This document shows positions 20,488 through 22,629 of a stretch of 64,000 nt of DNA, piece by piece. How positions within the stretch are numbered: position 1 is the stretch's first letter; every line of letters starts with the position of its first letter. Made by a program: the position numbers and the translations under genes. The DNA lies in NCBI GenBank assembly GCA_019455045.1, contig JACFND010000001.1:22023-86022 (forward strand), in the 5' to 3' direction. This DNA is from Flavobacteriia bacterium (GTDB lineage: Bacteria > Bacteroidota > Bacteroidia > Flavobacteriales > Weeksellaceae). The notes beneath the pieces were generated by a model. It was not told the DNA's origin. It saw only the letters and a list, made by a program, of their open reading frames with translations, and did no database searches.

Positions 20488-20780
20488 TTTTACTAAAAAT
20501 ATGCGGGGTAAATTTAAGAACTATTCAGTGCTCAAAAGGCCCAACCTTTGTATATATTATTGAAAACGCTTAATTTATATCGATTATAAATAATTTTTCA
20601 ATTGGGTTAATTCTGACAGAAATTTTGATCAGAAATCAGGAATGAAAATCAAAGTTTTGGTTTTGTATTGAAAATCAGCCGACTTGATTTGAAAAGCAAT
20701 AAATTTGCAGTTGGAAATCAAAAAATGACCGGAATTTTAAAAATATCGGCTATTTGTGTGCAATGTAAAAGAATAATTGC

Positions 20781-20788
20781 TACATTTG
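20781..20788 (+). promoter_or_regulatory. -7 box (TACATTTG) of rplU-rpmA
   Basis: TAnnTTTG 30 nt upstream of ATG 20819; a second match (TAAATTTG) at 20700-20707. Confidence 0.65.
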
Positions 20789-20818
20789 CCGTCCGAAAAT
20801 CAAAATAATATTTATATA

Positions 20819-21511
20819 ATGTATGCAATTGTAGAAATAGCAGGGCTTCAATACAAAGTTGAGAAAGACCAGCAGTTGTATGTAAACCGTTTGGGCGGAG
20901 AACCGGGAGACGAAATGTCTTTTGACCGTGTGCTTCTGACTGATAACGGTTCAGTACAGGTTGGCGCCCCGGTTATAGACGGCATGTCGGTAGTGGCAAA
21001 GATCGTCGAGCATGTGAAAGGTGACAAAGTAATCGTTTTCAAAAAGAAAAGAAGAAAAGGTTACAAAGTTAAAAACGGACACCGTCAGCTTTTCACCAAG
21101 ATCGAAGTGGTTTCTATCGGTGCCGGAAGCGGTGCTGCAAAGAAAGCTGCAAAAAAAGAAGCTCCAAAAGCAGAACCGGCAAAACTGGCTGAAGTTCCCG
21201 CTGAAGAGTTGAGCAAAGCAGCAGAACCAAAAGCTGAAATCAAAAAGGAAGCGAAGAAAGAAGAGAAAGCTGAAACTGAAAAATCAGCCAATCCGAATTC
21301 TGATTACGCAACCGTAAATTTCGGCGAGAACCACGAATTGAATTATCATTTGAAGAAACACGGTCTGTCCCAATCAAAAGGAAACCGTGAAACCCTGACC
21401 GAACTGGGCAGCGGATTGAAAGAAAAACTTGGCAAAAGAGTGCTGACTCATGAAGATGTTGACAGTCTGATTGCTGAGAATATTGCTAAATTTGACGAAG
21501 TAAAAAAATAA
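20819..21511 (+). CDS. rplU: 50S ribosomal protein L21 with Ala/Lys/Glu linker and an extra C-terminal domain (230 aa)
   Basis: MYAIVEIAGLQYKV...VIVFKKKRRKGY..KNGHRQ; start moved to 20819; directly upstream of rpmA. Confidence 0.95.
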   Translation: MYAIVEIAGLQYKVEKDQQLYVNRLGGEPGDEMSFDRVLLTDNGSVQVGAPVIDGMSVVAKIVEHVKGDKVIVFKKKRRKGYKVKNGHRQLFTKIEVVSIGAGSGAAKKAAKKEAPKAEPAKLAEVPAEELSKAAEPKAEIKKEAKKEEKAETEKSANPNSDYATVNFGENHELNYHLKKHGLSQSKGNRETLTELGSGLKEKLGKRVLTHEDVDSLIAENIAKFDEVKK

Positions 21512-21523
21512 ATCTGAAATAAA

Positions 21524-21784
21524 ATGGCACATAAGAAAGGAGTCGGTAGTTCCAAGAACGGTAGAGAGTCGCATTCTAAAAGACTGGGTGTGAAGATATT
21601 CGGCGGACAGACTGCCAAAGCCGGAAATATTTTGGTAAGGCAGAGAGGAACCGTACACCATCCGGGTGACAATGTTGGGATCGGAAAAGATCACACTTTG
21701 TTTGCGCTGATTGACGGTACCGTGGTTTTCCGCAAGAAAGCCAACAACAGGTCATTCGTATCGATCGATCCTGTGGTGGAATAA
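21524..21784 (+). CDS. rpmA: 50S ribosomal protein L27
   Basis: [35 protein letters not shown]. Confidence 0.98.
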
Positions 21785-21820: not shown

Positions 21821-21852
21821 AAAGGCTTCCCGTCACGGGCAGCCTTTTTTTT
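21821..21852 (+). terminator. Intrinsic terminator-like hairpin after rpmA
   Basis: AAAGGCT-T-CCCG-tca-CGGG-C-AGCCTTT running into a T8 tract. Confidence 0.75.
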
Positions 21853-21856
21853 GTTT

Positions 21857-21933
21857 GGCTCCGTAGCTCAGCTGGACAGAGCAGTAGTTTCCTAAACTAT
21901 TGGTCGGAGGTTCGAATCCTCTCGGAGTCACCA
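21857..21933 (+). tRNA. tRNA-Arg (anticodon CCT), CCA encoded
   Basis: Acceptor stem GGCTCCG/CGGAGTC, D arm AGCTCAGCTGGACAGAGC, anticodon arm GTAGT-TTCCTAA-ACTAT, T arm GGTTCGAATCC, 3' ACCA. Confidence 0.97.
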
Positions 21934-21935
21934 CG

Positions 21936-21960
21936 GACGGTCTGTTGATCGTCTTTTTTT
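21936..21960 (+). terminator. Terminator after tRNA-Arg
   Basis: GACGGTC-tgtt-GATCGTC followed by T7. Confidence 0.65.
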
Positions 21961-22095: not shown

Positions 22096-22629
22096 TTATT
22101 TTTTATTTCTTTTGTAACCGATAGTTTTCCGGCCGGTTTGTTTTGGATTTACAAATTCTCCCAAAACCTGCCATATATGATTAATCTCGGTGGATTGGTC
22201 GGTTTGATTTCGATTCAGTTTCTCGATTTTTTCAAGCAGATCTTCATAATTTGATGCCCATTGTCTCATTTTGACAAAAATCCGCATGATCGAAATATTG
22301 ACCTGAATCGCGGTCGGACTGTTGAGCACCGACGACAGCATTGCAACTCCCTGTTCGGTAAACATATAAGGCGGAGTTCTTCTGCCGCCCCAGCTTGGGC
22401 CTGAGGTCGCAAATTGCGACTTCAAGTCAGCCCATTCTTTTGGATTCAGCTGAAACATAAAATCAGACGGAAAACGGTCGATATTTCTTTTGACCTGTTC
22501 ATTCAGTCTTTTGGTTTCCACACCGTACAACTCAGCCAACTCGCTGTCCATCATCACTTTCTGATCTCGAACAAAGTAGATTGAGTTGAGAATCTTTTGC
22601 TGAATTTGGATGTCTTTTGAGTTTTCCAT
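22096..22629 (-). CDS. ORF6N-domain DNA-binding protein
   Basis: VMMDSELAELYGVETKRLNEQVKRNIDRFPSDFMFQL, GGRRTPPYMFTEQGVAMLSSVLNS. Confidence 0.9.
   Translation of the reverse strand: MENSKDIQIQQKILNSIYFVRDQKVMMDSELAELYGVETKRLNEQVKRNIDRFPSDFMFQLNPKEWADLKSQFATSGPSWGGRRTPPYMFTEQGVAMLSSVLNSPTAIQVNISIMRIFVKMRQWASNYEDLLEKIEKLNRNQTDQSTEINHIWQVLGEFVNPKQTGRKTIGYKRNKK

Follow-up and report, generated by a model that had tools for sequence, protein, structure and literature searches.

We found that rplU, in the analysed stretch of DNA (64,000 nt; hereafter the window) from a genome of the Weeksellaceae, encodes ribosomal protein bL21 with an additional C-terminal tail, and that this tail is a real, independently folding domain under purifying selection, far beyond chance occurrence. 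Judging from the searches described below, the domain appears to belong to a previously undescribed protein family and is probably a putative ribosome-associated factor. It is attached also to two other ribosomal proteins, bTHX and bS1, and its free relatives are small proteins of mobile elements. With moderate confidence we favour the reading that a mobile small protein was captured and turned into a ribosome-tethered binding module.

Architecture and selection of the bL21 tail

The listed open reading frame spans positions 20777-21511 of the forward strand. The ATG at 20819 is its likeliest start, since translation from this codon yields MYAIVEIAG..., the universal L21 N-terminus. The product passed the cut-offs of both L21 profiles over residues 1-100, with 121.8 bits for Ribosomal_L21p (PF00829; cut-off 27) and 96.6 bits for TIGR00061 (cut-off 43.7), and the rplU stop codon (21509-21511) is separated by 12 nt from the ATG of rpmA at 21524; the protein is bL21. 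A Foldseek search with the L21 core retrieved bL21 chains of many ribosome structures, 7jil_R being the top match. An initial annotation of this DNA had described an L21 core, a linker and an in-frame C-terminal domain ending 12 nt before rpmA, an arrangement that was confirmed by the reading frame and by Pfam, and the residues quoted there (160-230) agreed exactly with the translation. The positions assigned to the appended part, 21119-21511, cover the linker plus the domain, while the domain proper occupies a narrower interval (Table 1).

Table 1. Features of the rplU region, in positions of the 64,000-nt window
Feature	Position	Strand	Basis
rplU: bL21, linker and C-terminal domain, 230 aa plus stop	20819..21511	+	ORF, translation, PF00829, TIGR00061
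bL21 core, residues 1-103	20819..21127	+	Pfam residues 1-100; confident AlphaFold; Foldseek
Disordered linker, Ala/Lys/Glu/Pro-rich, residues 104-161	21128..21301	+	pLDDT <50
Domain of a putatively undescribed family, ~65 aa, residues 162-228	21302..21508	+	pLDDT ~90, dN/dS 0.118
rpmA (bL27), next operon gene	21524..21784	+	ORF; Pfam Ribosomal_L27 127.2 bits
tRNA-Arg(CCT), after rpmA	21857-21933		

With 19 L21 fusions as the input alignment, AlphaFold2 predicted the core confidently; pLDDT was below 50 for residues 104-161 and about 90 for residues 165-225. When the isolated domain was folded with 28 relatives, the mean pLDDT was 90.4 and the pTM 0.74. The modelled domain consists of three helices and just two short strand pairings, arranged (full-length numbering) as a short strand, helix 171-180, helix 187-204, a second short strand and helix 211-220; in the predicted monomer, strand 1 pairs within the chain with the strand preceding helix 3. 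Across 65 distinct L21 fusions, the linker varied in length from 18 to 62 aa and had a pI of mostly about 9.4, and the tail was constant at 68-70 residues. Its pI was 5.5-6.5 in nearly all fusions, with stand-alone members ranging from pI 4.6 to 9.7.

In the same 65 fusions, tail and core had mean pairwise identities of 0.819 and 0.817 and, determined over 1963 gene pairs, Nei-Gojobori dN/dS values of 0.118 and 0.122, respectively. As both values of the tail equal those of the core, we conclude that the tail is translated and constrained as strongly as L21 itself. Invariant or near-invariant positions of the domain are N167, F168, E173, L178, N189, R190 and K201, and the pair T210-H211 is conserved within the fused clade. 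The segment comprising helix 1, the loop and helix 2, HLKKHGLSQSKGNR, is basic and contains a G-h-S hairpin. In the solved ribosome of Flavobacterium johnsoniae (7jil_R) only 104 of the 147 L21 residues are modelled, as would be expected if the charged tail moves freely outside the particle.

Distribution, tail states and other ribosomal hosts

The domain is present in 39 of the 151 genomes of the window's family, representing 26 of its 49 genera, and absent from the other 112; within the window's own genus two of nine genomes carry it and seven do not. In an order-wide sample of 401 genomes, 16 possessed the domain, all of them Weeksellaceae, and 385 lacked it; in a class-wide sample of the same size the window's genome was the sole carrier. 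A frame of L21 size (188-248 aa) holds the domain in 37 of the 39 family carriers, the other two being a disrupted Bergeyella-type genome and a match that ends at the end of a contig. Scanning of species-representative genomes identified 135 encoding loci, of which 80 were kept, and 79 of these were L21 fusions. Carriers of the L21 fusion include many cultured Chryseobacterium species, Halpernia humi, Soonwooa buanensis and Planobacterium oryzisoli and, beyond the Weeksellaceae, Winogradskyella MAGs, Flavobacterium longum and F. caeni. The domain occurs as one copy in the window's genome, in the 39 family genomes and in six further genomes, one of which bears an S1 fusion.

A survey of L21 C-termini, suggested along with the initial annotation, revealed three tail states inside the window's genus: the present domain (L21 of 230-234 aa), a helix-hairpin-helix (HhH) type (211-212 aa) and a linker alone (122-145 aa). 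In other genera, L21 is either tailless (100-103 aa) or ends with a linker only. The HhH-type tail of congeneric L21 contains DDLTLIEGIGPK / ...DDLTLIEGIGPKAAETL... and matches HHH_5 with an E-value of 1.2e-5, its 26.1 bits lying below the gathering score of 27. In the window's tail we found no match to HHH families at E up to 10 and no GIG hairpin, in agreement with the earlier statement that the HhH motif is missing here. Scores of the rplU product with the NCBIfam models of the long-form L21 with an HhH tail were likewise far below their cut-offs (NF008915, 98.8 vs. 281 bits; NF008916, 95.6 vs. 193 bits), which places the protein outside that group. Both models go back to PRK12278, titled 'L21/unknown domain fusion protein'. 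The two kinds of L21 share an overall design, namely the L21 core, a disordered Ala/Lys/Pro/Glu-rich linker and a small C-terminal helical domain, but the terminal domains are unrelated and the present one is found also on THX, S1 and mobile free proteins.

Comparison of L21 proteins from Flavobacteriaceae and Weeksellaceae showed that their cores are 67-69% identical and their tails 71-79% (up to 90%), whereas the corresponding values within Weeksellaceae are 86% (core) and 77% (tail). The tail identity between families exceeds that of the core, indicating that the tail moved separately from the core. Together with the HhH domain on congeneric L21, this bears out the proposal that a different module had been swapped onto the same tether. 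In the Bergeyella-type small genome, a ~120-nt A/T-rich insert with three in-frame stops lies between L21 and the domain. The disrupted L21 is 149 aa long and ends with ...NPNSDHNTLK; the downstream frame has no ATG, GTG or TTG ahead of the VNF motif, and its sequence sits on a long tree branch. The disruption looks like decay, and this apparent decay together with the patchy distribution shows that the module is accessory and can be dispensed with.

A profile search restricted to short proteins yielded THX fusions of 106-131 aa, which begin with MGKGDKKTRRGKI..GSYG..RPRKK and continue with a Lys/Ala/Pro/Glu linker and then the domain. The THX-borne domain is 58-63% identical to the window's tail in global alignment and 63-68% in local BLASTP alignment. 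The fusions scored 47-53 bits with TIGR04560 ribo_THX (cut-off 26), and four of the six recorded exceeded the Pfam Thx gathering score. Metagenomic contigs are the source of these fusions and of most S1 fusions. The THX fusion is followed by DUF937 on five independent contigs, and on the two contigs long enough to show it the synteny continues with DUF2480 and LpxB. The LpxB from one such contig has its closest relative (78%) in a member genome of the window's family, where 1.5 kb separate THX and LpxB; this affinity and proximity indicate that the fusion occupies the normal THX locus of a Weeksellaceae-like organism. A THX gene was identified in 83 of the 151 family genomes and in none of the nine genomes of the window's genus. 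The 12 family THX genes that we read encode proteins of 41-91 aa in total length with linker-only charged tails, and THX without the domain occurs in genomes that carry the L21 fusion.

An S1 fusion was detected in a Porphyromonadaceae MAG as an 818-aa protein with six S1 repeats (NF004953, 942 bits vs. a cut-off of 720) and the domain at its end. A search of the 450-1430-aa range with this tail returned 26 protein clusters (449-870 aa), all S1. Searches covering partners of 40-1430 aa found no fusion partner besides bL21, bTHX and bS1. One other multi-domain form was seen, a tandem duplication of the domain itself.

Free relatives and comparison with known families

Pfam and NCBIfam gave no match to the tail at E up to 10, nor any match for ten of its free relatives. 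For the domain family, there was no PHROGs match below E 0.0099 and no match in the PADLOC anti-phage library below E 0.02; sequence and profile searches of the PDB with the tail returned nothing below E 0.004, and tblastn of the domain against 50,697 phage records gave no result. The single PDB match at E 0.004, the N-terminal helix of HypB, was considered a chance match of a short charged helix. In Foldseek searches of the PDB, the full-length model retrieved exclusively L21 chains and the domain model alone nothing below E 1. The initial annotation had called the domain unrecognised and folded and had proposed AlphaFold and Foldseek as a check; both parts of the description stood. A Foldseek search of BFVD gave one 73-aa phage protein (A0A8S5TM79; TM 0.75, E 0.02), the label of which, 'IMP-specific 5'-nucleotidase', is impossible for a protein of that length and therefore offers no functional lead.

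Of 1.84 billion representative proteins searched by phmmer with the tail, only 43 matched, most of them being whole proteins of 63-75 aa, and the suspected resemblance to stand-alone small hypothetical proteins proved correct. Named relatives, all deposited as "hypothetical protein", come from Vibrio, Moritella, Shewanella, Pantoea, Klebsiella, Salmonella, Campylobacter curvus, Thalassospira and Commensalibacter. The free genes are spread by plasmids, among them small proteobacterial ones, and by prophages, in hosts such as Vibrio, Aeromonas, Shewanella and Klebsiella. By tblastn, 40 plasmids were found to carry the gene, of which 28 are mobilizable, 4 conjugative and 8 non-mobilizable; many measure only 4-12 kb, and on plasmids the gene was monocistronic every time. 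In Vibrio splendidus a P2-like prophage carries the gene at its integrase end, where the adjacent cargo varies, in Thalassospira it adjoins a PIN toxin pair and in C. curvus it lies amid housekeeping genes; across the neighbourhoods inspected there was no conserved neighbour. The initial annotation contained neither these mobile-element relatives nor the ribosomal co-hosts, which are the most informative facts about the domain.

In a maximum-likelihood tree of 113 domain sequences, the ribosome-fused copies form one clade (support 98/84), nested within free proteins in a joint clade with support of 100/96. S1 tails nest among L21 tails, and THX tails make up a subclade. Since the tree was calculated from 68 columns, we rely only on its well-supported splits. 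The simplest history suggested by these data would be one capture of a free gene in Bacteroidota and subsequent shuffling among ribosomal protein genes.

DUF3606 (PF12244), a bacterial domain of ~60 aa that is itself uncharacterised, was the commonest weak Pfam match. No match of the tail was obtained at E up to 10, the window's own genome included, and six of 84 family members matched weakly (best E 0.026), the best score among relatives being 17.2 bits vs. a gathering score of 24.3. We gathered 12 true DUF3606 proteins from Bacteroidota genomes for a profile comparison. Alignment of the 84 family members with these by hhalign gave a probability of 75.8% and an E-value of 2.3e-5, over only 41 columns, which run from the first strand through helix 1 into the beginning of helix 2. 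The similarity resides in the N-terminal half, D-x-x-x-[IV]-N-x-x-E-D-[HY]-E-[LV]-x-Y-[WH]-x-x-K-x-G-[VL]-S. Both families comprise small stand-alone proteins and are harboured by P2-like prophages, DUF3606 having been noted as a moron ORF of P2-like phages (PMC6823313). Yet, DUF3606 is without the invariant N-R that opens helix 2 and without the extra strand and third helix (LTHEEVD...) of the present domain. On the strength of the profile alignment, distant kinship with DUF3606, not membership in it, seems plausible.

Proposed role and alternative explanations

In the reading that we favour, the ancestral form would have been a free protein of ~70 aa, a single-gene cargo of plasmids and prophages. 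Its capture in Bacteroidota, mainly in Weeksellaceae, would have placed it on disordered, charged C-terminal tails that ribosomal proteins already possessed, and afterwards the domain may have moved between the bL21, bTHX and bS1 genes and between lineages. Every ribosome would thereby expose a single copy at the end of a flexible, 18-62-residue tether, an arrangement expected to supply 1:1 stoichiometry and a high local concentration. We infer that the tail stays on mature ribosomes and acts there as a putative binding domain, and that its target lies on or beside the translating ribosome and is common to all settings. The candidate contact surface would be the conserved polar face formed by N167, E173, N189-R190, K201, T210-H211 and the basic HLKKHGLSQSKGNR. 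The initial annotation had suggested action near the 23S 5'/3' region, an idea weakened by the finding of the same domain tethered to the 30S proteins THX and S1. Given the large distances between bL21, bTHX and bS1, the domain is unlikely to dock at a fixed site beside L21, and with three anchors at different places on two subunits, anatomy yields no single docking site. As ligand we would guess RNA or a protein associated with translation rather than DNA; the local basic face of HLKKHGLSQSKGNR would possibly be compatible with RNA.

A further and more tentative suggestion concerns the free 70-aa proteins, which might be trans-acting ribosome-binding factors that modulate or protect host translation on behalf of mobile elements, one copy having been domesticated by Weeksellaceae and a few other Bacteroidota. 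We regard this as a possible though rather doubtful scenario. If it is true, the fusions would serve as a natural 'Rosetta stone' for the target of an orphan mobile-element family.

To our knowledge, few studies have dealt with ribosomal proteins that carry an additional tethered domain, although databases annotate them. The present case follows this design of a ribosomal protein plus a tethered domain, built from what appears to be an undescribed family, and it offers a clean handle on it: a compact domain under strong selection, in single copy per genome, on three unrelated ribosomal hosts of both subunits. If the module binds the ribosome or a partner, it would define a new family of ribosome-associated factors, and an orphan gene of mobile elements would gain a function. 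A further implication would be that ribosome composition can be diversified by module shuffling between close species, as the three different L21 tails inside one genus suggest. The triple ribosomal fusion provides a specific and easily testable hypothesis, and because many cultured Chryseobacterium species carry the fusion, the question is directly accessible to experiment.

The same fusions could reflect expression hitch-hiking, in which ribosomal genes would be mere strong, growth-rate-coupled carriers and the domain would work elsewhere, perhaps after cleavage of the linker. In favour of this, the three hosts rank with the most strongly expressed genes, proteases can probably reach the long, disordered linker, free members function untethered, and the anchor sites share no ribosomal location. 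There is also an analogy in the eukaryotic fusions of ubiquitin, a protein of well-known function, to eS31 and eL40. As in those fusions, a small autonomous domain stands in frame with more than one ribosomal protein; ubiquitin, however, is N-terminal and cleaved off, whereas the present domain is C-terminal on a long linker, the sequence and length of which vary freely and in which we found no conserved cleavage motif. Moreover, the hosts are ribosomal proteins only, despite the many other abundant proteins available, and the graft always ends tails that project from the ribosome surface. We consider hitch-hiking unlikely.

Less likely still is that the domain acts as a nucleic-acid anchor equivalent to the HhH tail it replaced, holding DNA (the nucleoid) or mRNA. 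The strand and two helices would then work as a phosphate-binding unit of the RHH or HhH type, for instance in mRNA capture in a phylum without Shine-Dalgarno pairing. Agreeing with this, an HhH domain occupies the same position of L21 in congeneric genomes, HLKKHGLSQSKGNR is basic with its G-h-S hairpin, and some free members adjoin plasmid replication genes. A slightly acidic tail in almost all fusions and a lack of charge conservation among free members argue against generic nucleic-acid binding, and the nucleic-acid-binding function put forward in the initial annotation was left unsupported. No HhH, RHH or HTH family matched even at E 10 and, among the Pfam matches of the 84 members, RHH families were absent even at E 1. 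In RHH proteins (CopG/Arc/MetJ) the N-terminal strand pairs across the dimer, unlike the first strand of the present domain, which is predicted to pair within its own chain; Foldseek gave no DNA-binding fold above noise.

Placement on every ribosome and carriage by mobile elements would both be accounted for by a toxin-related or immunity module, whether left over from or imitating the N-terminal helices of colicin D or BECR-fold RNases, or protecting against toxins that attack ribosomes or tRNA, but we judge this very improbable. Its basis is a weak sequence match of NRETLT and its flanks with the colicin D tRNase domain (E 0.26-0.8), a PBECR3 match (E 0.0017) in one family member, and the location of some free members near RelE/ParE and VapBC pairs on plasmids, one of them being deposited as 'ParE'. 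Homology to colicin D was rejected: the aligned His (H177), which in those RNases is catalytic, is not conserved, free members having I, R, Q, C, F or L instead, the four-stranded beta-sheet of the BECR fold is missing from the model, and colicin D was absent among the 50 Foldseek matches listed. These results place the domain outside colicin D and the BECR-fold RNases (PF11429, PBECR families), PADLOC was empty as described above, and the free gene never shares an operon with a toxin.

Finally, a neutral appendage or artefact, that is, a functionless tail produced by read-through or misassembly, would suit the lack of the domain in most relatives and its decay in one Bergeyella genome, but is refuted by a dN/dS equal to that of the core, by the confidently predicted fold and by the presence of the fusion in dozens of cultured, independently sequenced Chryseobacterium species.

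Departures from the intact L21 fusion

In a Bergeyella-type genome (L149, 3449-4216), rplU and the sequence encoding the C-terminal domain are separated by an A/T-rich insert of ~120 nt with three in-frame stops, and the same split layout was seen at L025/L015 of G018, a disrupted genome of this type. The 71-aa 'gene' deposited for the split-off domain (P0036) is without a canonical start codon; the domain is therefore probably a decaying tail. A Chryseobacterium-type L21 fusion is also encoded on a 679-bp contig filed as Microbacterium karelineae (NZ_WFIX01000143.1, L116). Several Chryseobacterium species have an identical fusion. This is probably a contaminant contig in the Microbacterium assembly.

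Free members of the domain family

Among the stand-alone proteins of the family, P0057 (144 aa) consists of two domain copies in tandem. Two others, each of 73 aa, carry public names that look wrong: the protein of plasmid pEMB3 (KJ631730.1; L035, 2395-2616) is named 'ParE', and a phage protein found among predicted viral protein structures (BFVD entry A0A8S5TM79) is named 'IMP-specific 5′-nucleotidase'. In Vibrio splendidus (L142-L144), the free gene and its MarR-like neighbour adjoin the integrase of a P2-like prophage, while the cargo on the other side of the free gene varies from strain to strain. We consider this prophage-end arrangement with its strain-variable cargo to be hotspot-like.

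THX in the family and DNA 3′ of rplU-rpmA

The 30S ribosomal protein THX (TIGR04560), one of the domain's fusion hosts in related bacteria, was found in 83 of the 151 genomes of the window's family and was not detectable in any of the nine of its genus (the window's own genome and eight congeners). In the 12 THX genes read, the tails were charged and very variable in length, with total protein sizes of 41-91 aa. Features 3′ of rplU-rpmA are listed below.

Features of the Vibrio splendidus prophage end and of the window DNA downstream of rplU-rpmA
Feature	Position	Strand	Setting
Free gene, Vibrio splendidus	L142-L144, 5001-5213		tail-to-tail with 96-aa MarR-like gene
GC-rich hairpin + T-run	window, ~21824-21852		between rpmA and tRNA-Arg(CCT)
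tRNA-Arg(CCT)	window, within 21857-21954		directly 3′ of rplU-rpmA
Terminator-like hairpin	window, 21935-21954		3′ of tRNA-Arg(CCT)
ORF, 177 aa	window, 22096-22629	-	downstream of tRNA-Arg(CCT)
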